Source: a virus (lineage: Duplodnaviria > Heunggongvirae > Uroviricota > Caudoviricetes). From it: a stretch of DNA of 10,400 nucleotides. The first letter of the stretch is position 1; each line of letters starts with the position of its first letter. The stretch lies in the IMG/VR virus record IMGVR_UViG_2529292985_000016, positions 1 through 10,400 of that record. One strand, given 5' to 3'. Below the pieces are notes generated by a model. The model was not told where the DNA came from. It made no database searches and saw nothing but the letters and a program-made list of their open reading frames with translations. Positions 1 to 10,400 of the stretch are shown here, in pieces. The translations under genes were made by a program, and so were the position numbers.

Positions 1-120
1 CTCTTCATACCAGTTTTTTCCGTCTTCCGAAAAAAGCCAGGTGACATCATATTGTTTTGTCAGCTGATATTGTTCCACGGTTTTCGGATTGCCCGCAGTA
101 ATATTTTTTAAATGCAACAT
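1..120 (-). CDS. Tail fibre assembly protein (Tfa), N-terminal 40 codons; gene continues past the left window edge
   Basis: ATG at 120..118 on the minus strand, 2 nt after the tail fibre stop (TAA, 125..123). The frame is open to position 1 and translates [40 protein letters not shown], which resembles from memory the N-terminus of enterobacterial Tfa (P2 gpG / Mu U type) chaperones. Position immediately after the fibre gene is the canonical synteny. Confidence 0.7.
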
Positions 121-122
121 TG

Positions 123-1508
123 TTAAACACTCGCCACGTTATACCAGGTGCCATTAATCAGTTTCTGAAGCGGGCGGTAATACACGCCGTTGACGTTATC
201 CGCTGAGTCACGGCCGGTATCCGATATCGCTATCCCTGACAGCCCGTGTCCCGAAGGTGCGCGAAATCTCCACGAAACGGTGTTACTGCCGGGGCTGTAA
301 TACATTTCATGGCCATACCGTACATCCTGTACCCCCTCTGTTCGATATTTATAGCGGGCATCGAAGTTTCCGTAATTTAACGGAATTACCTGTCCGTTTA
401 CGGCGAACGTGATGCTGTTATCTGTATTCCTCTGGCTGAAAAAATGCCAGCCTGAATCATCGCCAAGCTCTGCAACAACAGACCAGGATGGATTACCCCA
501 CAAATAAAACGCTGCATTTTTCGTGGAGTTGTTGGCGCTGGATAACGTGAATTTTCTGGCAGTTCCGGCCTGAATATTCTTAAAAACAATAGCCACTCCA
601 TTCTGAAAGCGGAATACACGCTGACTATTAGCATAAACATCCAGAATACCGTCTCCATTCTGTTTAAATCCGGTGTCATTATCACCAAGAACAATTGAAT
701 TCCCCCCCAGGGCGTTCTGAACGCCGATACCCAGCGCACCATTGACCTGCGAACCACCGCCAACAGACACTTTATGCGACATGGATATTTCACCCGTCCG
801 CAAATTAATGGTGAACGGGCGCAGGGGACCAATATCGCCATTTTCCCCCTGACCTTCACTGGTGGGAATAAGGTGCAGGCACTCTTCCGAACGACGAAAA
901 ATCAGGCCAAAAGCTTCGTTGAAAATCCTCAGCGCATTAACACCACGGATTTTCAGCTCTCCGGTTATTTTATCGCCTTCCCGATGAACATAGCGTTGAT
1001 CTGACTGCTCTTTACTGTAAACCTGAAGATTATCCCGTGCCGTCCCTTTATTCTGAAGGTCTGACAGATTGTTCTTCTGCCGCAGGAATATCCTTTTCGG
1101 ATCCTCAAGAAGATTTACCCAGCCCGCACTGTCGGAGCCTTCAGGATCGGTCAGGTTATCGTCTGTGGTATTCAGCCAGACCGCTGTTGTTGCGACTCCG
1201 GCGAGAATGGCTCCTTTTGCATATCCACCAATGGCCCCCGCAAAACCGGCATTATACGTGTACAAACCGCCAGCTTGGGCGAACCGTATTGCTGCGGTAA
1301 TATCGTACATCAGACCGTTAAAATCCTTGCCGTGTGGCGGTATACCTCCCGCTGAGACCGCTGTCATGGTCACCGGAGGAAAACCTGAATCATACGCAGC
1401 ATTACCGCTCTCTCTGGTCTGCTGTGTCGCCTTGTCCGGGATACGGTTTTTATCTCCGGTACTCGCAAAGGGGACCGCCAGCTGGCGGGGTTTATCACTG
1501 GCCTTCAT
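123..1508 (-). CDS. Tail fibre protein (461 aa) with a P2 gpH / Mu S-family C-terminal region
   Basis: Intact ORF. Start ATG 1508..1506 is preceded by AAGGAG (1521..1516) with a 7-nt spacer. It overlaps the upstream gene's stop by 14 nt and is followed by the Tfa gene. The C-terminal half contains the block [42 protein letters not shown]...[11 protein letters not shown], which I recall as the conserved C-terminal region of P2 gpH-type fibres. Confidence 0.85.
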
Positions 1509-1820
1509 TACGGGACTCCTTTAAAACTACTGAAACATAAACACCCGGCGGGGACGGCAGTGCACCCGACGACTGGATAATCGCCAGTTCTGCCAACGAG
1601 AGCGCGGACTCAAAGATGTAACTCATCCTCAGCCCACCATTATTCAGAACATAAGCCCGCCGTTTTTTTCCGAACATAAATCTCAGCATCCGGTTAATAT
1701 CCGGAACGGAACAGTCAGTAATGTTCGACATGGCTTTCATCAGTATCAGCCGCCGGTATACAGCATCAGACAGGTCAACAGTCCGGGTATCCGATTTTCC
1801 GTTGTAAAACGGTGCCTGAT
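1495..1820 (-). pseudogene. C-terminal fragment of a baseplate gene (P2 gpI / Mu gp48 position) interrupted by IS2
   Basis: The frame is continuous with the N-terminal fragment at 3152..3436 once IS2 is removed (…PCPFNQ|APFYNGKSD…). Stop TGA at 1497..1495. The six-frame ORF 1495..1848 starts 28 nt inside the IS2 left end, so its first 9 codons (MSGDSGGQS) are IS-derived and artefactual. Confidence 0.75.
1816..1820. repeat. Left copy of the 5-bp target site duplication (CTGAT) flanking IS2
   Basis: CTGAT lies immediately outside the IS2 left end (1816..1820) and is repeated immediately outside the right end (3152..3156). IS2 is known to make 5-bp duplications. Confidence 0.85.
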
Positions 1821-1861
1821 TAGACTGGCCCCCTGAATCTCCAGACAACCAGTATCACTTA
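1821..1861. repeat. IS2 left terminal inverted repeat (IRL)
   Basis: IRL TAGACTGGCCCCCTGAATCTCCAGACAACCAGTATCACTTA aligns imperfectly, with a 1-nt offset, to the reverse complement of the right end TGGATTTGCCCCTATATTTCCAGACATCTGTTATCACTTA. Shared blocks are GCCCC, TCCAGACA and TATCACTTA. Confidence 0.8.
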
Positions 1862-1911
1862 AATAAGTGATAGTCTTAATACTAGTTTTTAGACTAGTCA
1901 TTGGGGTACAG

Positions 1912-2277
1912 ATGATTGATGTCTTAGGGCCGGAGAAACGCAGACGGCGTACCACACAGGAAAAGATCGCAATTGTTCAGCAGAGCTTTGAACCGGGGAT
2001 GACGGTCTCCCTCGTTGCCCGGCAACATGGTGTAGCAGCCAGCCAGTTATTTCTCTGGCGTAAGCAATACCAGGAAGGAAGTCTTACTGCTGTGGCCGCC
2101 GGAGAACAGGTTGTTCCTGCCTCTGAACTTGCTGCCGCCATGAAGCAGATTAAAGAACTCCAGCGCCTGCTCGGCAAGAAAACGATGGAAAATGAACACC
2201 TCAAAGAAGCCGTTGAATATGGACGGGCAAAAAAGTGGATAGCGCACGCGCCCTTATTGCCCGGGGATGGGGAGTAA
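1912..2277 (+). CDS. insC: IS2 transposase OrfA (InsC), 121 aa
   Basis: ATG at 1912 (the listed ORF begins at an upstream GTG at 1867). Translation [56 protein letters not shown]…[16 protein letters not shown] matches IS2 InsC as I recall it. Stop TAA at 2275..2277. Confidence 0.9.
2229..2235 (+). other. IS2 programmed -1 ribosomal frameshift heptamer A_AAA_AAG that produces the InsCD (OrfAB) transposase
   Basis: AAAAAAG at 2229..2235 sits in the X_XXY_YYZ register of the insC frame (codons GCA AAA AAG TGG). The insD frame is -1 relative to insC and overlaps it. This is the known IS3-family mechanism. Confidence 0.7.
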
Positions 2278-3140
2278 GCTTAGTCAGCCGTTGTCTCCGG
2301 ATGTCGCGTGCGCAGTTGCACGTCATTCTCAGACGAACTGATGACTGGATGGATGGCCGCCGCAGTCGTCACACTGATGATACGGATGTGCTTCTCCGTA
2401 TACACCATGTTATCGGAGAGCTGCCCACGTATGGTTATCGTCGGGTATGGGCGCTGCTTCGCAGACAGGCAGAACTTGATGGTATGCCTGCGATCAATGC
2501 CAAACGTGTTTACCGGATCATGCGCCAGAATGCGCTGTTGCTTGAGCGAAAGCCTGCTGTACCGCCATCGAAACGGGCACATACAGGCAGAGTGGCCGTG
2601 AAAGAAAGCAATCAGCGATGGTGCTCTGACGGGTTCGAGTTCTGCTGTGATAACGGAGAGAGACTGCGTGTCACGTTCGCGCTGGACTGCTGTGATCGTG
2701 AGGCACTGCACTGGGCGGTGACTACCGGCGGCTTCAACAGTGAAACAGTACAGGACGTCATGCTGGGAGCGGTGGAACGCCGCTTCGGCAACGATCTTCC
2801 GTCGTCTCCAGTGGAGTGGCTGACGGATAATGGTTCATGCTACCGGGCTAATGAAACACGCCAGTTCGCCCGGATGTTGGGACTTGAACCGAAGAACACG
2901 GCGGTGCGGAGTCCGGAGAGTAACGGAATAGCAGAGAGCTTCGTGAAAACGATAAAGCGTGACTACATCAGTATCATGCCCAAACCAGACGGGTTAACGG
3001 CAGCAAAGAACCTTGCAGAGGCGTTCGAGCATTATAACGAATGGCATCCGCATAGTGCGCTGGGTTATCGCTCGCCACGGGAATATCTGCGGCAGCGGGC
3101 TTGTAATGGGTTAAGTGATAACAGATGTCTGGAAATATAG
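2235..3140 (+). CDS. insD: IS2 transposase OrfB (InsD), 301 aa; expressed as an InsCD fusion by -1 frameshifting
   Basis: ORF of 301 codons with stop TAG at 3138..3140. It contains the IS3-family catalytic-core-like region (…[50 protein letters not shown]…). It overlaps the 3' end of insC in the -1 frame. Confidence 0.9.
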
Positions 3141-3151
3141 GGGCAAATCCA
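3111..3151. repeat. IS2 right terminal inverted repeat (IRR)
   Basis: Imperfect inverted match to the IRL at 1821..1861; the element ends …GGGGCAAATCCA at 3151. Confidence 0.8.
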
Positions 3152-3156
3152 CTGAT
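3152..3156. repeat. Right copy of the 5-bp target site duplication (CTGAT) flanking IS2
   Basis: Identical to 1816..1820. Removing IS2 plus one CTGAT copy rejoins the two gene fragments in frame. Confidence 0.85.
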
Positions 3157-3436
3157 TAAACGGACAGGGATCATCCATTACCGGGGTGTCCATCCTGGAC
3201 TCGCTGAAGCCCAGGTAATTAAAATCGTCCTTTACCGTCAGCCGGCGACTGACACCCACAATCTTTCCCCAGACATCAAGACCATACTTTTCTGCGGTAT
3301 CGATGTTCCAGATAAGACCATAAAAATCACTGATAAAACTGTCGGGGGAAAGCGCTGCGTTAAAGCTGTTAATGAGGGCATTGAGTCGGGGGCTGGCAGC
3401 ATACTGCGCAAGCACAGTGGCAGCCACATTCTGCAC
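3152..3436 (-). pseudogene. N-terminal fragment (95 codons) of the IS2-interrupted baseplate gene (P2 gpI / Mu gp48 position)
   Basis: GTG start at 3436..3434 is preceded by AGGAGG (3448..3443) with a 6-nt spacer and lies 1 nt after the J-like stop (TAA 3440..3438). After codon 95 the frame runs into the IS2 right end, adding a 28-aa IS-encoded tail before a stop at 3065. The reconstructed intact protein would be about 202 aa. Confidence 0.75.
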
Positions 3437-3437
3437 G

Positions 3438-4675
3438 TTATGCCTCCTGGAGTTTCACACTGATATCCGACACATCCAGAACCGGAATCTCATCTATCCC
3501 GAAAGTGACAGCCGTTGTCCATGACGAACCGTCACGGCTCACAGTAAGGCCCAGAATATCAATATGTTCCGGATCGGTTTTGTAAATGCCGGCATAGTAG
3601 CGCCCGGCAGAGACAACAGAGGCAACCCTTGCCCGCAGACCACCATCTGTACCATTAAATGCGTCCAGCACGGATTGCTGTACCTGTCGGGTAATATCTG
3701 AAGGCAGGTAGTCACTTTTTTTCAGCGTCACACTGACATGCAGACTGACGGGTTTGAGTGTCTGCCAGCTGATTACGTATTCAGGATACGGCGGATCGTA
3801 CTCCTTATCTGCAACAGTGAACGTTGTGTTGCCATTCATATCAATACCCGGCGGAGCCTTACGCCAGATGGCCGCCGCGATATCTGCCGGGCTGCCGCCG
3901 TACACGCCAACATAAAGCGAACCGGGTGTTAATGGATACTGACTGACTCCGGCTTTTTGTTCTGTTTTTTTCGGATTATGGGTGACGTAAACATCCACCA
4001 CGTTTTCTACCGTGGAGAGTATTTCACCCCGGATGGCTTCCAGAATATTCCGGGCATTACGGGCAACTGAATTACGTCGGCGGTTTTCAAAGTCCGCACG
4101 GGTTTCCTCATCGCTGCCCGGCACACCGGCACGGGCGTTAGTGACACCTGACCAGCCAGGTATTGCCTTATAAATTTTATTCAGCGTCCCCACAGGACAG
4201 CCGACGGGGCCGGTGGACAAATTCAGAAATACCGCATCAACCTGCCCTGATGCGCCGATAGTGACGTCTGACTGACATACTTATAACCGGCCTCATCCTG
4301 CCCCATACTGCCCGCCGGGATCAGCGTGCCAACCAGCCCGGTACAGGTCGCTGTTACTGTCGTACCTGTGGCCCCACGGCGCTCCAGGAAATAAATCCTG
4401 CCTATTGCATCCTGAAAGCGACCACTGGAAAAGTCAGGGTTGATCTGGTTAACGATATACAGCAACTGATCGTTTTTATCCGCAATAATGGCGCTTTCGC
4501 TGGATGCAAGTTGTCCCTGCGGACTGCTCAGACTGGTACTCATGGCCCCGCCCAGCGCCGCCGAAAAATCAGCAAGCCTGCCGCTCAGAATATCCGCTTC
4601 ATCCGGCACATTCAGCCCGCTATCCGAAATCTGTACAGCGGGCACTGCGGTAGAAAAAGATTTATTTTCACTCAT
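3438..4675 (-). pseudogene. Baseplate J-like protein gene (P2 gpJ / Mu gp47 family), split across two reading frames by an apparent frameshift near 4262-4280
   Basis: The upstream ORF (4223..4675, ATG at 4675 overlapping the preceding stop as ATGA) ends …GYKYVSQTSLSAHQGRLMRYF*. The downstream ORF (3438..4220) has only a TTG start with no Shine-Dalgarno motif, and its frame is open upstream to 4280 (VCQSDVTIGASGQVDAVFLNLSTGPVG…). The two frames overlap at 4226..4280 and read as one J-like protein of about 413 aa if a +1 (or +4) nt change is made. The switch point lies on a TGAC/CTGA tandem repeat (4268..4276). Confidence 0.6.
3443..3448 (-). promoter_or_regulatory. Shine-Dalgarno motif (AGGAGG) for the gpI-position gene
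   Basis: Minus-strand AGGAGG lies 6 nt upstream of the GTG start at 3436 and supports the non-ATG start. Confidence 0.6.
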
Positions 4676-5028
4676 AGCAGTACCGTAAAAATGTCATTAT
4701 TGGTATCTGTAATACGCAGCACACCTGTTACTGTCCGGGTTTGATCAGCTGTGACCTGGCAGACAGCGGCGCTCACGGTCGGCAGTTTAAGTGCTTCCTG
4801 TTGCAGAGTGGCATTCACCAGTTGTGTGCCGGGCCAGTGTCCGAGGATGCGTGGCCAGTAAGGTATGCCAGCCGTTGAGTCGTACCAGCACTCCCCCAGA
4901 AAAGTACTGCACGCACACGCCACATCCTGAGCTACCGCATGGGGATTATCAGTAATGGCAAGATTTCCGGTATCATCAAGCAGGATATCCCATGTCCCGG
5001 TGTCAAGAAGAAGTGATCGTGACTGCAT
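4672..5028 (-). CDS. Small baseplate protein (118 aa) at the position of P2 gpW / Mu gp46; family not recognised
   Basis: ATG at 5028 with an AGGAG Shine-Dalgarno motif 5 nt upstream (minus-strand ACAGGAGAAAAC ATG). Its stop TGA overlaps the next start as ATGA at 4672..4675. It sits between the spike and J-like genes. Confidence 0.6.
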   Translation of the reverse strand: MQSRSLLLDTGTWDILLDDTGNLAITDNPHAVAQDVACACSTFLGECWYDSTAGIPYWPRILGHWPGTQLVNATLQQEALKLPTVSAAVCQVTADQTRTVTGVLRITDTNNDIFTVLL

Positions 5029-5040
5029 GTTTTCTCCTGT

Positions 5041-5631
5041 TTACCGGGATCCCTGCGTGGTTGAGCCGCCGGACTCAACGCCGCCGTGAACGTGGTTTCC
5101 AAAATCAATACCCCCGATGTTCGAACCGCCGGAAAGCCTGGACTGCCCGGTAACGTCAAGCCCCTTACTGACGGCGGTATCGCCGTTCAGCGCAATTTGT
5201 GGTGAGTTAACGGTGAAGCTTTTCGGCGCATTAATCACCCCCTCAGGCGCGGATATCTCCACTTTCCAGGGAGATACAATCCGTATCTGGTTGTCATCAA
5301 ATACCACAAACTGGACGGGATCACCGTTGAGCACGCCACCCAGCCAGATGGCAAGAAAACCGATATCCCCCACATGTGGCGGGATAATCACCGCATTACC
5401 GCCCCCCTGTAGTCGCCATACGGGAATGTTATAAATCACCTCATGTTCAACCGGGGAACCGTCTGCTGCAACGCCCATTACCATCGGTCGGGCCTCAATA
5501 AATCCCTCTTCCACGGCTACCACCCGTCCCAGAGTGATAAACGCATGACGTCCGAGAAACTGCCGCAGCATAAAGTCCTGTGCATTGATTTCGCTGTTCA
5601 CGTCTGTCGGGTTACTGAGTGGTTGTGCCAT
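5041..5631 (-). CDS. Baseplate central spike protein, gpV-like (196 aa)
   Basis: The C-terminus …SGGSNIGGIDFGNHVHGGVESGGSTTQGSR carries a His-x-His apex motif, as in the P2 gpV spike (HTHKH…GGTTG). Size and position (upstream of the W-position and J-like genes) fit the Mu-type baseplate order. Start ATG at 5631 overlaps the upstream gene by 20 nt. Confidence 0.7.
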   Translation of the reverse strand: MAQPLSNPTDVNSEINAQDFMLRQFLGRHAFITLGRVVAVEEGFIEARPMVMGVAADGSPVEHEVIYNIPVWRLQGGGNAVIIPPHVGDIGFLAIWLGGVLNGDPVQFVVFDDNQIRIVSPWKVEISAPEGVINAPKSFTVNSPQIALNGDTAVSKGLDVTGQSRLSGGSNIGGIDFGNHVHGGVESGGSTTQGSR

Positions 5632-6481
5632 TTTCTTCAGCCCTCATCATGGTACAGTTGGAACTCCACGGACCGCCCACGGTTCGCGAAGTAATGGTGT
5701 GTATCACCCCTGTGATCGTATAATCGCCCGTCATATCAGGCAGTGACGATTCCAGATGCGCTGGCCTGCCAGTAAAGAGATCGGGGCAGAATATCGTGGT
5801 GGCGCTGAGTCCGGTCATGGTGTAAACCGGATAGCCAGTCAGTCCGTGATCCGGCGAAATCAGTACCGGCGGAATATTCCGGTTCTGCCCTTTCGGCCAG
5901 ATGGTGACTTTCTCCACATTCCCCAGATCAATGTTAATATCGGCGGCTGAAGCGACATCCAGCATTTGTTGTACAACATTACCGGAAAAATGCGGGTCAG
6001 ACAGACTGCGGCTGACCCCCTGGTTTTCAAATCCAAGCCCGACAGTTGACGCCAGCGCACGGATAATATCTGCAACCGCAACATCGCCCTTTGCGCTGAA
6101 ATCTGCCGCCGGCTGATTACGCAGATTAAAATGAATCTGTCCTGTCAGAATGAGCGGAATATCCGGCGCCTGGTTGTAGTCGGCGTATGCATCAGTAATA
6201 TCACCTTCAAAAATAAGCCGCCCGTCGGCCCACAGCCGCATTTTATTTTCGGTACTCTGCTCCTGTCGCCACACACCGCGCCAGCTTAAATTCGTCATAT
6301 GCGCCGGTGACATTCCCCAGATATACAGCGTGATTTGTGTACCAGCCACCCCTCCATATACGGCAATACTGGCAAAACAGCTTGCGTCGGTAATGGTCAG
6401 CATATTGCCCTGGCCATTACCAAACGTTCGTCCGTCTGAAAGAGTGAACTCCACCGTTATTTTACGTTGTCTGTAGCTCAT
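5612..6481 (-). CDS. Tail/baseplate protein (289 aa), unassigned family; occupies the hub-protein position upstream of the spike
   Basis: ORF whose start ATG (6481..6479) overlaps the upstream stop as ATGA. Placement between the tape measure and spike genes. No motif I can assign with confidence. Confidence 0.55.
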
Positions 6482-6780
6482 ATCAGTTCCTCAGGTAACA
6501 GCCAGTAGAGCCGGTACCGGGATCCGAGCCCCCGCCAGTCAGGGTCACTATTCCCCTCCGTGTCGGTAAAAAACAGGTCCCCCTGAAACGGCAGGTATCC
6601 GTACCGGACAATCCGGTTATTATTCAGACACAGCACGCCATACAGGCACGGTTCACCATTAACAATGATATCGATATACATCCCCGTAGTACGCTGATTC
6701 AGGCGAATGGTGCAGACCTGAGCGCCCAGTGTCACCGTAAACTGCTGGGCTTTAACGGGAGATAAAACAATTTCCAGCAT
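6478..6780 (-). CDS. Small tail/baseplate protein (100 aa), function unknown
   Basis: Start ATG at 6780..6778 overlaps the upstream stop as TGATG; its stop overlaps the next start as ATGA. Translational coupling inside the tail operon argues it is a real gene. Confidence 0.55.
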
Positions 6781-7490
6781 CAGGTGATCCCCCTGTTCGT
6801 GGCGCTTCGTCTGTCAGCGTCTGACGGTTGTGTCACCGACGCCGTAACTGGCTGCGTTTTAACCGATGCGGCCCCTTTTGCTTTATCGTTGTCCGTGGGA
6901 GACGACTTATCCGTACTTCCCACTGACACCTCTCCTGTATTCATTACGGTCTGAAATACCGCAGTAACCGTCAGTAAGGTCGGACCATTATTACTTCGCA
7001 TTCGGTAGTCATATTTCACAAGGTCGCAGGATGTCCATGTCTTGTCCGGCGTCTCAATATCGTAGAGTCCTGCCGTGGTACGCATCCTTTCAAGCGTTTC
7101 CAGCACATTCGTCCGCGAGGTGGTGGAAAAATTTGTCAGGTTCGGGACGGATCCGGAAAAGGCCGTCCACCCCTCTACAGTGAAAGTCACATGCAGTTCC
7201 GGCGATCTCTGGATTTTATTAAAGGTGGTATAAGCCCCCTGCTCCACGGGGACGGTGGAAACAGAAGCCTCCGCGCCCACCTCAACGACAACAAAAGAAT
7301 CCGGGGAGAAAGGTTTGCCACCCTTCTGATGGGCACCTGCCGGATCATTCCGTGCGTAATAAATACCGAATGACGGTGCCAGTACACTATTAATGAGTCC
7401 CAGGACACAGCCGCCACGAACTGCACTCAGTACGTTACTTTCACTGAGCGAAAAGTTATTCAGGGAAATATTATCGAAAGAAAAACTCAT
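6780..7490 (-). CDS. Tail protein (236 aa) immediately downstream of the tape measure gene; family not recognised
   Basis: Start ATG at 7490..7488 overlaps the tape measure stop (TGA 7489..7487) as ATGA. The position corresponds to the distal tail / baseplate-initiator proteins of contractile-tail phages. Confidence 0.6.
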
Positions 7491-9508
7491 CCTGTTACCC
7501 CGCTGGAATAAACCGACACAAGCGCCGAATTCGTGATACGCCGACGTGCGTCATCGGTAATACCCTTCACATTGTCCGACGTTGTGGTGACATTCAGTGT
7601 CCCGATATGCGTGGTTTCCGTTACGGTGGACTGCGATACAGGCGCAGGATGGAGCGACCGTATGGCCATTGCCGCACCCGGATAAGGCAGGTTCGCCAGC
7701 ACCCGCGGAATATAGTTGCGGGTCTCCTCCGGAGCAGCAGCCAGTCCCTTACGCTGAACATTTCCCTCTCCACAGTTATATGCCGCCAGAGCCTTAGCCA
7801 GATCGCCATGAAAAAAACGTATCAGGCCACCAAGTTTTCTCGCGGCGGCATCAGCGGCTTTTTCGGGATCAAAGGCATCGTTCCCCCTCAGACCAAATTC
7901 ACTGGCCGTCTTCGGCATGAACTGAAACAGTCCCATCGCACCAGCAGGTGAGACGGCAAACTGATTACCACGGGATTCGGTGATCGCAACGCTGCGCAGC
8001 AGTCCGGGCGGCAGGTTATATTTTTCCTCCAGTTGAGACAGTTTCGGTTGCAGCCAGCCTAACAGGGCTTCCCCGGTCTTCGTCGGTCGCTGGCGGTTTT
8101 GCATGGCATTACCGAGTTTTTCCTGCGTCGCACGCATACCCTGTAGCCAGGATTCACCGAAGGCTGCTTCCCTCCCGGTTGCCTGAGAAGCCTGAGTATC
8201 CAGCATGCCCTGCTGCCATACTGTGGGTGATTGTGCCCGGGTGATGTTGCCAGGCTTTTCTCCGGCATCCAGTTTTGTCTGATACGTCTCCATCTCTTTC
8301 TTATTGAAAAAGAAAGTCCCGTCTGAAGCCCAGAAAAAACCATGTGAATCCAGCCAGTCCTTATTTTCCCTGCCAACAATGGATGTCAGTAATCCGTCAA
8401 CAACCGGGTAAAGCGCCGTTATCGCAAAAAGAAGGCCTCCGGGGCCACTGAGGGCTTTTGTCAGCCCCCGCACCCATGACGCCACTTTCAGCCCGATCAG
8501 CGTAATAATGACATTCTGCCAGCCCCCCAGTTCTCCGGCAGCCTTATTCGCTAGGGAGGCCACTGACTCAACGTCATTCAGAAATGTGGTGATAAACCTG
8601 TTCACTTCCTCCGGATGTTGCTGCATCCAGTCACCGAGTGTCTCCAGCCAGTGGCTGAGCTTCAGCGCGTACGGCATCAACGCGGTGCTAATCGTCATCC
8701 CGATGCCGGACCAGGTCTGATCGAGCTCAACAAGCTCTTTTCGTAGCTTACGGGCCAGCGCTGTACGCCCCGGCGTAACCTGCGAACGGGAAGTAAATTC
8801 GTCCACATCTTTCAGCGCATGACCGGAGCCAAGAAACTGCTGTCCGGCATAACTGAAGCCCAGCGCGTTGCCGTAGGCAGTTTGTTCGGACTTTGTCAGT
8901 CGCGGAAAAATAACCGCCAGCTTGCGCATGATGGCTTCAGTGCTGTCAGTATTTAAATCAACACTAATGCCCGCCCTGGCTGCAACCTGAAACAAATCCT
9001 GTAACACAGGATCAAAGGACCTTCCGGCTCTGAAGGCCGCTTTTGCATTTGCAAGCCGGGAAAATGCCCCAGACATTTCCCCTTCATCAACATTATTTGC
9101 CCGCGCAGCCCGTAACCATCCGTCCAGATTTCTGGCCTTCATGCCAAAAGCATCGGATTCCACGGACAGACGGTTCAGATCACGGGCAAAACCTGTTACC
9201 AGGTTCTTCAGCCCCCCCAGCGTCAGACTGACACCCGCAAGAGCCAGAATCTCGCTACGGATTCCTGAAAAAAAACGGGACGCCCGTTTCCCGGCATCTT
9301 CCATTCGACGGGCCGTTTTATCAGCATCTTTTCCGGTTTTTTCCAGTGATTCACTGGTTTTCTTCTGTCCCTGACTGAATGTGTCAGCGACACCTTCCAT
9401 CACCGTCGTGAGCCGGTTAAGGGCAGCATGTACTGCCTGTTCCCCGGCAGTAAAGTCCCTGTCATCAATCCCGAGGGACAGAACAAGCTCATCAAGTACC
9501 TGCGCCAT
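7487..9508 (-). CDS. Tail tape measure protein (673 aa) with a C-terminal soluble lytic transglycosylase-like domain
   Basis: ATG at 9508 preceded by AGGAG (9520..9516) with a 7-nt spacer. It lies immediately downstream of the chaperone frameshift pair. It has an alanine/charged-rich N-terminal half, a hydrophobic central segment (NVIITLIGLKVASWVRGLTKALSGPGGLLFAITALYPVV), and the SLT motifs …AITESRGNQFAVSPAGAMGLFQFMP…AYNCGEGNV at residues ~505-585. Confidence 0.8.
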   Translation of the reverse strand: MAQVLDELVLSLGIDDRDFTAGEQAVHAALNRLTTVMEGVADTFSQGQKKTSESLEKTGKDADKTARRMEDAGKRASRFFSGIRSEILALAGVSLTLGGLKNLVTGFARDLNRLSVESDAFGMKARNLDGWLRAARANNVDEGEMSGAFSRLANAKAAFRAGRSFDPVLQDLFQVAARAGISVDLNTDSTEAIMRKLAVIFPRLTKSEQTAYGNALGFSYAGQQFLGSGHALKDVDEFTSRSQVTPGRTALARKLRKELVELDQTWSGIGMTISTALMPYALKLSHWLETLGDWMQQHPEEVNRFITTFLNDVESVASLANKAAGELGGWQNVIITLIGLKVASWVRGLTKALSGPGGLLFAITALYPVVDGLLTSIVGRENKDWLDSHGFFWASDGTFFFNKKEMETYQTKLDAGEKPGNITRAQSPTVWQQGMLDTQASQATGREAAFGESWLQGMRATQEKLGNAMQNRQRPTKTGEALLGWLQPKLSQLEEKYNLPPGLLRSVAITESRGNQFAVSPAGAMGLFQFMPKTASEFGLRGNDAFDPEKAADAAARKLGGLIRFFHGDLAKALAAYNCGEGNVQRKGLAAAPEETRNYIPRVLANLPYPGAAMAIRSLHPAPVSQSTVTETTHIGTLNVTTTSDNVKGITDDARRRITNSALVSVYSSGVTG

Positions 9509-10120
9509 TTCTGTTCTCCTGTATCACCTGTTCGTTATGGGCATCCACATGAATTATTTCCAGCAGATCCCATAAGTCCTGCACACCAAGGACAGAATCC
9601 AGTTCAGCTTTTGAAGCCTTACCGGAGGAGATAACGGTCGCAATGGTACGGGGAACATTAACGTAATCCACCACCCCGAACGGTCTGTCGGGGTCGAGAT
9701 AACGCGGGGGGATATCTAGCTGACGACGGTAGCGAAAAAATCCACATGCAGCTTAAAGACCTCCGCACGCAGATTAAGACGGGTAATGATTTCTTCAATA
9801 TCCTCTTCAACAAGCGGTCTCCGGATGCTGCGTTTTTTCGGATCGGGAACAAACTGCACACAGTCCATCATTTCATCCATCAACGGACGCGCCTCATCAG
9901 GCGGAATTTTCGATAATGCTTTCAGCCCTTCAAGGGCAAGCGCAGCCATCCCCAGACTACGAACATCATCCGGTAACTCCACGCCACCACGCCCCATTGC
10001 CATAATGGCACGCATCGCCCACCATTCCGCCTGTGAGGCAGACATTTCGGTAAGATGAAATACCTTGCCCTTATCCCGTCCCTGACCTTCAATAGTGATA
10101 AATTTCTCTTTACGGGCCAT
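9492..10120 (-). CDS. Predicted -1 frameshift fusion product of the tail assembly chaperone (gpGT / gpE+E' analogue, ~208 aa)
   Basis: The -1 frame is open from 9752 to a TGA at 9494..9492, overlapping the tape measure start by 17 nt. Shifting at T_TTT_TTC (9740..9734) continues …VDFF into RYRRQLDIPPRYLDPDRPFGVVDYVNVPRTIATVISSGKASKAELDSVLGVQDLWDLLEIIHVDAHNEQVIQENRNGAGT. The extension has no start codon with a Shine-Dalgarno motif of its own. Confidence 0.55.
9516..9520 (-). promoter_or_regulatory. Shine-Dalgarno motif (AGGAG) for the tape measure gene
   Basis: Minus-strand GATACAGGAGAACAGAA ATG gives a 7-nt spacer to the ATG at 9508. Confidence 0.6.
9716..10120 (-). CDS. Tail assembly chaperone (134 aa; analogue of lambda gpG / P2 gpE)
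   Basis: ATG at 10120 preceded by GGAGG (10135..10131). It lies directly upstream of the tape measure gene and ends with a slippery heptamer followed by an overlapping -1 frame ORF that runs to the tape measure start. Confidence 0.7.
   Translation of the reverse strand: MARKEKFITIEGQGRDKGKVFHLTEMSASQAEWWAMRAIMAMGRGGVELPDDVRSLGMAALALEGLKALSKIPPDEARPLMDEMMDCVQFVPDPKKRSIRRPLVEEDIEEIITRLNLRAEVFKLHVDFFATVVS
9734..9740 (-). other. Candidate -1 programmed ribosomal frameshift slippery heptamer T_TTT_TTC in the chaperone gene
   Basis: Minus-strand GAT TTT TTC GCT: the heptamer is in X_XXY_YYZ register with the chaperone frame, 6 codons before its stop, and the -1 frame is open downstream to the tape measure start. 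Confidence 0.55.
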
Positions 10121-10400
10121 CAGTTAAAAACCTCCGGAGTAATGGTTTCCCACTCAATAACCGCCTGCCCTGGCTGCAACGTACGAGCTGCATCAGGCAG
10201 CGCTTTCCATTGTTTGAGTACGCCATTCACGCAGGTATATTTACGGCCAATCGCCGGAAGCAGGACGACAGCGTTACAACGGAATACAGCCCGACTGGCC
10301 CGGATGTGGTTGACCAGGTATCAAAAATATCCCGGCTGGGGGAATCCGGCATGATATGAAACGTCTGGATAATGTTGCTGTACACAAATCCCGCGGACAG
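10120..10400 (-). CDS. 3' end of an upstream tail gene (tail-tube position), partial at the window edge; reading frame unresolved
   Basis: One minus-strand frame is open from the window edge down to a TGA at 10229..10227 (…MPDSPSRDIFDTWSTTSGPVGLYSVVTLSSCFRRLAVNIPA*). Another is open from 10320 to a TGA at 10122..10120 that overlaps the chaperone ATG as TGATG (…TLQPGQAVIEWETITPEVFN*) but has no credible start codon. Either the gene ends at 10227 with a 107-bp spacer, or it is frameshifted near 10320. Confidence 0.35.

Follow-up and report, generated by a model that had tools for sequence, protein, structure and literature searches.

Is the open reading frame (ORF) that lies between the tail assembly chaperone gene and the tape measure gene of this prophage a small gene of its own, or is it the second half of a longer chaperone produced by a programmed −1 frameshift? 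The question arose from a sequence-only reading of a stretch of 10,400 nucleotides (IMG/VR record IMGVR_UViG_2529292985_000016, positions 1 to 10,400; hereafter the window), which had proposed a tail assembly chaperone of the gpG/gpGT type with a conserved programmed −1 frameshift. Our analysis makes it very likely that a temperate E. coli prophage of the myovirus type has its tail assembly chaperone locus in this stretch, and that a programmed −1 frameshift would yield the 209-aa chaperone fusion predicted here.

Organization of the locus

The genes follow one another in the order tube, chaperone, −1 ORF and tape measure (Table 1), within a wider order of sheath, tube, chaperone, tape measure and baseplate genes. 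The chaperone gene and the −1 ORF form an overlapping pair that sits between the tube and tape measure genes, which confirms the arrangement upstream of a tape measure gene that had been recognized as that of tailed phages. The minus-strand coordinates also agree with the placement of the heptamer in register six codons before the chaperone stop, as the heptamer is followed by five sense codons (GCT ACC GTC GTC AGC) and TAG is the sixth codon. The −1 frame is closed by TAA 9755..9753, is open from position 9752 and runs for 82 codons, 80 of which specify new residues, against the 80 or so first estimated; its TGA falls 17 nt inside the tape measure gene, as had been stated, the ATG of the latter being at 9508 with AGGAG on its 5′ side. 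The copy of the tube gene present in the window is frameshifted by its 1-nt deletion, and tail assembly may therefore fail altogether in this prophage; the tube gene is intact in other strains such as CFSAN029787.

Table 1. Coordinates of the features of the chaperone locus within the window
Feature	Position	Strand	Description
Short chaperone gene (G-like, TAC-N)	9716..10120	minus	134 aa, 15.2 kDa, zero frame; ATG 10120, TAG 9718..9716; from ORF list and translation
Shine-Dalgarno GGAGG of the chaperone gene	10131..10135	minus	From sequence; anti-SD duplex −10.2 kcal/mol
Slippery heptamer T_TTT_TTC	9734..9740	minus	X_XXY_YYZ register; codons GA(T TTT TTC) = D-F-F, residues 127-129
−1 extension (T-like domain)	9492..9733	minus	80 residues, RYRRQLDIPP...NGAGT; TGA 9494..9492; from translation
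Predicted frameshift fusion (GT-like, TAC-NC)	9492..10120	minus	209 aa, 23.7 kDa; predicted junction ...LHVDFF/RYRRQLDIPP...
GTG GTG in the −1 frame	9671..9676	minus	Start of a separate 60-aa ORF in annotation pipelines; judged no real initiation site
Tape measure gene with lytic transglycosylase (SLT) domain	7487..9508	minus	673 aa; 17-nt overlap with the end of the extension
Tail tube gene, 3′ part	10120..10400	minus	Stop TGA 10122..10120 overlaps the chaperone ATG; 1-nt deletion near 10303

Conservation of the slippery heptamer

We compared 83 sequences, consisting of 82 loci and the window, with chaperone identities ranging from 59 to 100%. The heptamer occupies the same register, five codons before the stop, in 83/83 sequences, and reads TTTTTTC in all but one, which has TTTTTTT. 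At the codon level, 47 unique related loci were compared; these loci share a phylogeny, and the counts that follow are not independent events. GAT and TTT, the first two codons touched by the heptamer, are invariant (47/47), their synonymous alternatives GAC and TTC never being used, and the third codon is TTC in 46/47. Neighbouring conserved residues each use two to five synonymous codons, and the Phe located five codons 5′ of the site is encoded by TTC in 42 of the 47 loci. The T6 run is also found in 8 complete E. coli genomes. A Sodalis copy carries a run of T5 and has its extension in the +1 frame.

Heptamers of the X_XXY_YYZ type occur in register 15 times in the 2723 codons of the genes of the window, and the long −1 frame follows only that of the chaperone gene (82 codons versus 3 to 43 for the other 14). 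Because at least 80 open −1 codons are found at only 2.5% of the codon positions of these genes, a chance origin of the heptamer together with the long −1 frame is unlikely.

Coding constraint and possible starts in the −1 frame

The −1 frame is open for 76 to 82 codons in all but three of the 83 sequences, those three having indel-type breaks. Within codons 9 to 21 of this frame, a segment between the zero-frame stop and the earliest start, variable sites are distributed as 5, 5 and 13 over the three codon positions, and D-I-P-P of the LDIPP motif varies at third positions only. Judging from this pattern of substitutions, the −1 frame is under protein-coding constraint 5′ of any start codon. 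The extension is conserved in related phages, a point on which the sequence-only reading had made its proposal depend, and its conservation as protein extends across genera.

The same reading had denied the extension both a start codon and a ribosome binding site. GTG codons at 9674 and 9671 do exist in the extension frame and give rise to a 60-aa ORF annotated by PGAP and others; the claim holds for the Shine-Dalgarno sequence of GTG 9674, whose anti-SD duplex amounts to −2.2 kcal/mol, whereas the background averages −3.6 kcal/mol and most other gene starts of the window have −6 to −10 kcal/mol. GTG 9671 reaches −6.3 kcal/mol solely through a GGGGUG that directly abuts the start codon. Among relatives, the first possible start of the −1 frame drifts from codon 12 to codon 52.

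RNA elements around the slip site

A stimulatory stem-loop or pseudoknot downstream of position 9734 had been suggested as a feature to look for. We found no conserved element of this kind: the minimum free energy fold of 9640..9745 has a z-score of −0.47, the downstream folds of individual loci differ from one another, and RNAalifold applied to 15 diverse representatives gives a consensus of −0.5 kcal/mol with 3 pairs. In view of this result, the heptamer is probably all that the shift depends on; lambda G/GT, too, is reported to need no downstream RNA stimulator. Two other candidates were rejected. A long-range ACCGCC/GGUGGUGG pairing is present in some clades only, and a GGAGG located 19 nt 5′ of the heptamer is too far away to act as a Shine-Dalgarno-like stimulator and is absent in a clade with AGC GAA GT.

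Distant relatives and natural fusions

In phages of eight host genera (Acinetobacter, Aeromonas, Burkholderia, Pseudomonas, Klebsiella, Edwardsiella, Acetobacter and Vibrio), the extension always lies in the −1 frame relative to the chaperone gene. Seven of these eight have, at the homologous LH-x-x-F site, an in-register TTTTTTA, TTTTTTC or GGGTTTT. Klebsiella phage RCIP0114 is without a canonical heptamer and has only GCT TTT GTA, and Burkholderia phage phiE131 and Aeromonas phage 56 have G_GGT_TTT, with only four or five T.

Searching databases for homologues of the whole fusion returned only chaperones of about 134 aa, with no entry covering more than 64% of the fusion, and searching with the extension returned only short ORFs of 47 to 84 aa with varying starts. 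In a set of 1298 cluster representatives at 50% identity, nearly all of the 150 top matches lose their homology to the fusion at residue 128-130, and zero-frame tails are variable past this point.

Two proteins, gp47 of Burkholderia phage Bcep781 and gp22 of Ralstonia phage Bakoly, are each encoded by one uninterrupted ORF that corresponds to the fusion. They belong to phrog_18181, which bridges both halves of the predicted fusion, and are true homologues matching each half; their sequence LHVAFLTDREPLDIP aligns without a gap across the predicted junction of LHVDFF/RYRRQLDIP. Bcep781 gp46 and Bakoly gp21 fall into the family of the short chaperone described here, phrog_1932. In these two phages, unlike in our prophage, the long and short forms are the products of two separate adjacent genes, the short-form gene has neither a slippery heptamer nor a −1 extension, and the gene order around the tape measure gene differs.

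Together, these observations suggest a broader possibility, which we put forward tentatively and hold to be somewhat less probable than its negation. There may be a large chaperone family lacking a Pfam model, comprising at least 1298 clusters at 50% identity, in myoviruses with an E217/Pam3-type baseplate, whose short and long forms would be obtained in two interchangeable ways: mostly by slipping into the −1 frame at U6C, U6A or G3U4, where no RNA stimulator is detected, or from separate paralogous genes, one for a GT-like fusion and one G-only (Bcep781-like and Bakoly-like). Were this so, the family could serve as a natural experiment to ask why frameshifting sets the G:GT ratio and how this constraint can be escaped.

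Protein family assignments

PHROG profiles assign residues 1-130 of the chaperone to phrog_1932, annotated as tail assembly chaperone (E 2e-58), and the extension to phrog_3976 (E 6e-32). The interpretation of 7487..9508 as a tape measure gene is reasonable, given that its product matches phrog_2013, annotated as lytic tail protein (E 2e-244), as well as tape measure PHROGs (E 8e-29), that it has an SLT domain at residues 493-598, and that the gene precedes the baseplate genes.

The gpG/gpGT label has to be divided. It fits the arrangement and the mechanism that we infer; it does not extend to relatedness with the classical proteins. No Pfam family matches the chaperone even at E ≤ 10, including the Phage_TAC and P2 gpE families, no NCBIfam match was obtained, and sequence searches of the PDB gave no meaningful match from either the single sequence or a profile. 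The solved chaperones considered for fold similarity, after the spiral chaperones of Pell et al. 2013, were 2OB9, 3KLU and 3FGX. An AF2 model of the chaperone N-domain reaches a pLDDT of 83, and its Foldseek comparison against the PDB returned nothing significant, the best hit being 5ir0_A at E 1.1 and YqbN (3klu) ranking only 18th (E 7, TM 0.30). The AF2 model of the whole fusion, built on a shallow alignment, has a pLDDT of 55 and is too poor to interpret the C-domain. Fold matches in BFVD, with E values from 2e-8 to 1e-2, are to myovirus phage proteins annotated as chaperones, names that are annotations and not tests. Because neither a sequence match nor a significant match in fold connects it with lambda gpG or HK97 gp13 (nor with YqbN), we regard the chaperone, by analogy, as a functional analogue in a family of its own (phrog_1932 plus phrog_3976).

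Alternative explanations

We considered whether the −1 ORF could instead be an independent small gene, its 60-aa product being translated from GTG 9674, whether through independent initiation or by ribosomes that re-initiate once they have terminated on the chaperone gene. Such a GTG-initiated ORF exists, E. coli RefSeq records and Pantoea phage PA-1 list it as an ORF in its own right, and databases contain many ORFs of the kind (47 to 84 aa). However, GTG 9674 is without a Shine-Dalgarno sequence, its duplex being weaker than the background mean, and the drift of the first start would cost the conserved peptide up to two thirds of its length. The annotated lengths are inconsistent, the 13 to 22 codons located 5′ of the start are under −1 coding constraint, and homologues fused in frame exist. 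We thus consider an independently initiated gene in 9509..9715, the alternative that the sequence-only reading had itself named, very improbable. Even less probability attaches to the idea that the locus is a product of chance or artefact, in which the heptamer would merely reflect a conserved D-F-F, the open −1 frame would be fortuitous, or a sequencing indel would have split a single-ORF gene. D-F-F is indeed conserved as protein, which leads one to expect T-rich codons, and the neighbouring tube gene of the window does have a 1-nt indel. On the contrary, T6 is found in 46 of the 47 unique loci, which come from many assemblies, and in the complete E. coli genomes; the synonymous GAC and TTC are avoided at the first two heptamer codons; −1 frames of this length are rare; and protein-level conservation of the −1 frame extends across genera. 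Such comparative data effectively refute this explanation.

The same fusion could also arise by transcriptional slippage, in which the transcript would gain one extra U as RNA polymerase copies the T6 run, giving a minority of T7 mRNAs, with no slip of the ribosome. We assign this route a low probability. Efficient slippage of the bacterial RNA polymerase usually requires a run of some eight or more, longer than the T6 present here. The motif keeps to the X_XXY_YYZ register throughout, a register that is relevant to ribosomes only, and the G_GGT_TTT found in phiE131 and in Aeromonas phage 56, poor as a slippage tract, is canonical as a tandem-slip heptamer. In favour of transcriptional slippage, the site is a homopolymeric run and one relative has T7; moreover, a non-translational mechanism is proposed for T4-like chaperones (Vladimirov et al. 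2022), and poly-U/poly-A heptamers are tied to transcriptional slippage in E. coli (PMC4066793). The programmed −1 ribosomal frameshift in the chaperone gene just 5′ of the tape measure gene, which was the core of the sequence-only reading, is supported by the synonymous conservation of the slip site, the constraint on the −1 frame, its drifting first start and missing Shine-Dalgarno signal, the distant phages and the in-frame fusions.

Proposed mechanism

Our model is as follows. Most ribosomes would translate the 134-aa chaperone and stop at its TAG. A minority would pause with two tRNA-Phe on UUU-UUC within U_UUU_UUC, slip back by one base to UUU-UUU, and read 80 more codons in the −1 frame up to the TGA. 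The product would be the 209-aa fusion, whose first 129 residues are common to the short form. From what is known of lambda G/GT, P2 E/E+E′ and Mu, one would expect the N-domain common to both forms to coat the tape measure protein and the rare C-terminal domain to bring in tube subunits, with the proportion of short to long form set by the frameshift. We infer the ribosomal nature of the slip, its efficiency and the protein-protein roles; our literature search found no paper on a frameshift in this chaperone family, nor a report of a fusion protein or a measured efficiency.

Comparison with known systems

A close parallel is lambda gpG/gpGT, reportedly described by Levin, Hendrix and Casjens in 1993 and by Xu, Hendrix and Duda in 2004. 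In both loci, two overlapping ORFs separate the major tail or tube gene from the tape measure gene, the first ORF has a slippery heptamer in register only a few codons from its stop, and the −1 extension has no start of its own, which in lambda goes with a short major and a long minor product sharing a common N-terminus, as predicted here. Unlike lambda, our prophage is of the contractile-tail type and its heptamer is U_UUU_UUC instead of G_GGA_AAG; no sequence homology to the lambda proteins was detected (no Pfam chaperone family), and the frameshift in the prophage is a prediction from sequence. P2 gpE/gpE+E′ and Mu share with it a contractile tail, a T-rich slippery run near the end of the chaperone gene (said to be TTTTTTG in P2) and an extension that ends at or inside the tape measure gene. 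They differ in showing no detectable sequence relationship, no Pfam family being matched, and the baseplate module of the prophage is of the E217/Pam3 type and not of the P2 or Mu type. An in-silico case of the same kind was made in a different phage family, the Pakpunavirus/Vandenendeviridae phages, where a downstream "hypothetical" ORF was reinterpreted as the C-terminal domain of a long chaperone form (PMC12846349).

Implications for annotation

Frameshifting in tail chaperone genes is a well-known phage device, and no concept is changed by finding it here; it is unannotated in databases for the phage family of this prophage. The records that we inspected cover the widespread enterobacterial prophage family and phages of Pantoea, Acinetobacter (Obolenskvirus), Aeromonas, Edwardsiella, Burkholderia and Pseudomonas, and in every one the extension is a separate hypothetical ORF or is unannotated. 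It should instead read as a ribosomal-slippage fusion of about 209 aa. The chaperone frameshift is near-universal in long-tailed phages, and the locus would extend it to a further independent lineage; the two-gene variant of Bcep781 and Bakoly offers a comparative handle on the need for two chaperone forms.

Many NCBI entries call the extension ORF "transcription elongation factor GreA". We found no support for this name, as the 60-82-aa sequence has no Pfam match at E ≤ 10 and no NCBIfam match at E ≤ 1. The GreA name appears on the extension ORF solely as a source label in NCBI records.

Organization of the chaperone locus

The sequence-only reading placed a slippery heptamer near the 3′ end of a chaperone gene and a long open −1 frame beyond it; its coordinates, the register of the heptamer and the 17-nt overlap between the end of the −1 frame and the following 673-aa gene all agree with the minus-strand sequence (Table). 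The chaperone gene ends in ...CTG CAT GTG GAT TTT TTC GCT ACC GTC GTC AGC TAG, and translation of the −1 frame from the heptamer yields FF-RYRRQLDIPPRYLDPDRPFGVVDY...NGAGT (82 codons). Although 15 in-register heptamers occur in the 2723 codons of all window genes, only this one precedes a long −1 frame, the others being followed by 3-43 open codons; at least 80 open −1 codons are found at only 2.5% of codon positions.

Features of the chaperone locus and of two phages with an in-frame long form
Feature	Position	Strand	Basis or remark
Tube gene	10120..>10400	minus	1-nt deletion at about 10303
GGAGG before chaperone ATG	10135..10131	minus	sequence
Chaperone ORF, 134 aa	ATG 10120 to TAG 9718..9716	minus	sequence
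T_TTT_TTC heptamer	9740..9734	minus	X_XXY_YYZ register, five sense codons ahead of stop
−1 frame	opens 9752 after TAA 9755..9753; ends TGA 9494..9492	minus	translation
Tape measure gene, 673 aa	ATG 9508 to 7487	minus	
SLT lytic transglycosylase domain, C-terminal	tape measure residues 493-598		Pfam E 1e-26
Bcep781 gp47, gp46	2522..3441 of fetched locus L083		
Bakoly gp22, gp21	2495..3462 of fetched locus L084		

Among PHROG families, phrog_1932 ‘tail assembly chaperone’ is matched by the 134-aa protein (E 2e-58) and phrog_3976, of unknown function, by the extension (E 6e-32). A third family, phrog_18181 (170 aa), matches the hypothetical fusion across its two halves, over residues 56-198. The earlier assignment of 7487..9508 as a tape measure gene is reasonable: its product matches phrog_2013 (‘lytic tail protein’, E 2e-244) as well as tape measure PHROGs and has an SLT domain, which explains why its annotation in related records varies between ‘lytic tail protein’, ‘tail fiber/lysozyme’ and ‘transglycosylase’. 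Downstream lie genes for a Dit-like baseplate protein, a Pam3 gp18-type plug and an E217 gp41-type hub. Prophages 99.9% identical to the window are present in complete E. coli genomes (eight span the whole query, a ninth part of it), in the order sheath (DUF3383), tube, chaperone, 60-aa ‘hypothetical protein’ and lytic-transglycosylase tape measure protein. Relative to the eight copies spanning the site, a C-run in the window's tube gene is shortened from CCC to CC, which splits this gene and gives a premature stop. Of the fetched loci, only L004 has this deletion as well. The window prophage may be defective or the deletion may be a sequencing error.

Conservation of the slip site and of the −1 frame

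We compared 83 sequences (80 IMG/VR loci, one E. coli prophage, Pantoea phage PA-1 and the window) with chaperone identities of 59 to 100%. All 83 carry the heptamer in the same register five codons ahead of the stop, as TTTTTTC except for one TTTTTTT, and, with three exceptions, their −1 frame stays open over 76-82 codons. In these three loci (L003, L028 and L081) the extension is broken by indels, located in L003 about 30 nt past the heptamer as an additional C within the C-run encoding P-P, and likely reflecting assembly errors or decaying prophages. Among the 47 unique sequences, the codons at the heptamer are GAT (47/47), TTT (47/47) and TTC (46/47) or TTT (1/47), and two to five synonymous codons are used at every neighbouring conserved residue; the Phe five codons 5′ of the heptamer is TTC in 42 of the 47. 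Because loci were retrieved using degenerate peptide patterns, the choice of heptamer codons was not imposed by retrieval.

The extension is also conserved as protein: D-I-P-P is invariant in all 47 unique sequences, with codon changes at third positions only. Within a 35-sequence gapless group, codons 9-21 of the −1 frame, which lie past the zero-frame stop and ahead of the first start codon, contain 5/5/13 variable sites by codon position. The chaperone stop is TAG in all loci listed (9716..9718 in the window and homologous positions) and is embedded in the −1 codons for an invariant Leu-Asp (CTA/TTA GAT/GAC), so the overlapping frame appears to constrain stop-codon choice.

It had been proposed that the −1 frame lacks a start codon and ribosome binding site of its own. 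GTG codons are in fact present at 9674 and 9671, giving the 60-aa ORF annotated by PGAP, but the anti-SD duplex at GTG 9674 reaches only −2.2 kcal/mol, compared with −6 to −10 kcal/mol at most other gene starts of the window and a background mean of −3.6 kcal/mol. The first ATG, GTG or TTG varies among relatives from codon 12 to codon 52 past the heptamer, a TGA closes the −1 frame just 5′ of the heptamer in some clades, and the extension is entered in databases with differing starts and lengths (47 to 84 aa). Taken together, coding constraint upstream of the starts, start drift, weak anti-SD pairing and inconsistent lengths make an independently initiated gene in 9509..9715, which the sequence-only reading had named as a finding that would overturn it, very unlikely.

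Long forms in other phages

Homology searches with the fused product, as suggested by the sequence-only reading, matched across both halves single ORFs of Burkholderia phage Bcep781 (gp47, 170 aa) and Ralstonia phage Bakoly (gp22, 186 aa). BLASTP aligned LHVAFLTDREPLDIP with LHVDFF|RYRRQLDIP without a gap at the predicted junction, direct evidence that the two halves are parts of a single polypeptide and meet at the point indicated by the heptamer. A separate G-like (short-form) gene adjoins each long form, gp46 in Bcep781 (phrog_1932, E 5e-31) and gp21 in Bakoly; neither a slippery heptamer at the 3′ end nor a −1 extension was found in either, and two genes apparently substitute for the frameshift. 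The Dit-like gene (phrog_1830) precedes the tape measure gene in these two phages, rather than following it.

Querying 50,697 phage records with the fusion by tblastn matched 134 records. The chaperone halves occupy different frames, the second always −1 relative to the first, in phages of Acinetobacter (Obolenskvirus), Aeromonas, Burkholderia (phiE131 group), Pseudomonas, Klebsiella, Edwardsiella, Acetobacter and Vibrio, and in seven of these eight genera TTTTTTA, TTTTTTC or GGGTTTT is found in register at the homologous LH-x-x-F position. The exception, Klebsiella RCIP0114 (locus L089, about 1940..1975), has GCT TTT GTA only, without a canonical X_XXY_YYZ heptamer, and its extension is still −1; a single-tRNA (P-site) slip on U_UUU is possible there. 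In an exhaustive search (1298 representative clusters), nearly all of the best 150 clusters cease to be homologous to the fusion at residue 128-130, exactly the slip site, and the zero-frame tails beyond it differ in length and sequence. In Burkholderia phage phiE131 (locus L087, 2114..2605), an inserted HNH homing endonuclease gene separates the end of the extension from the tape measure gene. The Sodalis praecaptivus copy (proteins P0023 and P0123, SODG_000181/182) has a T5 run where others have T6; its chaperone extends to 140 aa, and the +1 frame holds its extension, for which an upstream ATG was called as the start (MWIFRTRRPLDIPP...). This copy may be a decayed prophage or contain a homopolymer sequencing error.

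Mechanism and relation to known chaperones

The mechanism with the best support is a tandem −1 slip in which two tRNA-Phe move from UUU-UUC to UUU-UUU; this would produce a 23.7-kDa fusion alongside the 15.2-kDa short form. Transcriptional slippage at the T6 run would make the same protein, yet we consider it improbable, given that the G_GGT_TTT of relatives holds only four or five T and that the motif always keeps the ribosomal register, both of which favour the ribosome. The stem-loop or pseudoknot that the sequence-only reading proposed as a check 3′ of 9734 was not found as a conserved stimulatory structure (window fold z = −0.47; alignment consensus −0.5 kcal/mol; per-locus folds disagree). 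An upstream GGAGG was rejected as a stimulator, being 19 nt from the heptamer and not conserved. By analogy, the domains of the fusion would serve in tape measure binding and tube recruitment; in characterised chaperone pairs, the long form amounts to about 3-4% of the short form, a figure cited in PMC9603447.

The earlier ‘gpG/gpGT type’ designation holds for the arrangement, which resembles the lambda G/GT-type frameshift in every feature testable on sequence, but not for detectable homology to lambda, HK97 or P2 chaperones, as Pfam, NCBIfam and PDB sequence searches gave no hits. For the N-domain, a good AF2 model (pLDDT 83) was obtained; it resembles no PDB entry significantly (best 5ir0_A, E 1.1; chaperone YqbN, 3klu, rank 18, E 7) and matches BFVD models of proteins annotated as myovirus tail assembly chaperones (E 2e-8 to 1e-2). 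The model of the full fusion (pLDDT 55) is too poor for interpretation. A recent paper (PMC12846349) argues in silico along the same lines for chaperones of Pakpunavirus, in which the motif is GTTTTT, and no paper on the present family was found in the literature searched. We consider the observation real and its interpretation as a tail chaperone −1 frameshift correct in substance, the locus being a new, unannotated case of a very well-known kind of frameshift.

Annotation

The main value of these results lies in correcting annotation; the contrast within one family between one gene with a frameshift and two genes is of secondary interest. A slippage join is annotated in none of the distant two-frame phage records from the eight host genera. 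Many NCBI records call the 60-aa −1 ORF (9492..9674, minus strand, in the window; database proteins P0122 and P0125-P0136) ‘transcription elongation factor GreA’, a label that should be dropped: because this ORF has no Pfam or NCBIfam match, the name appears to be an annotation error for the chaperone C-terminal domain that has spread from record to record.
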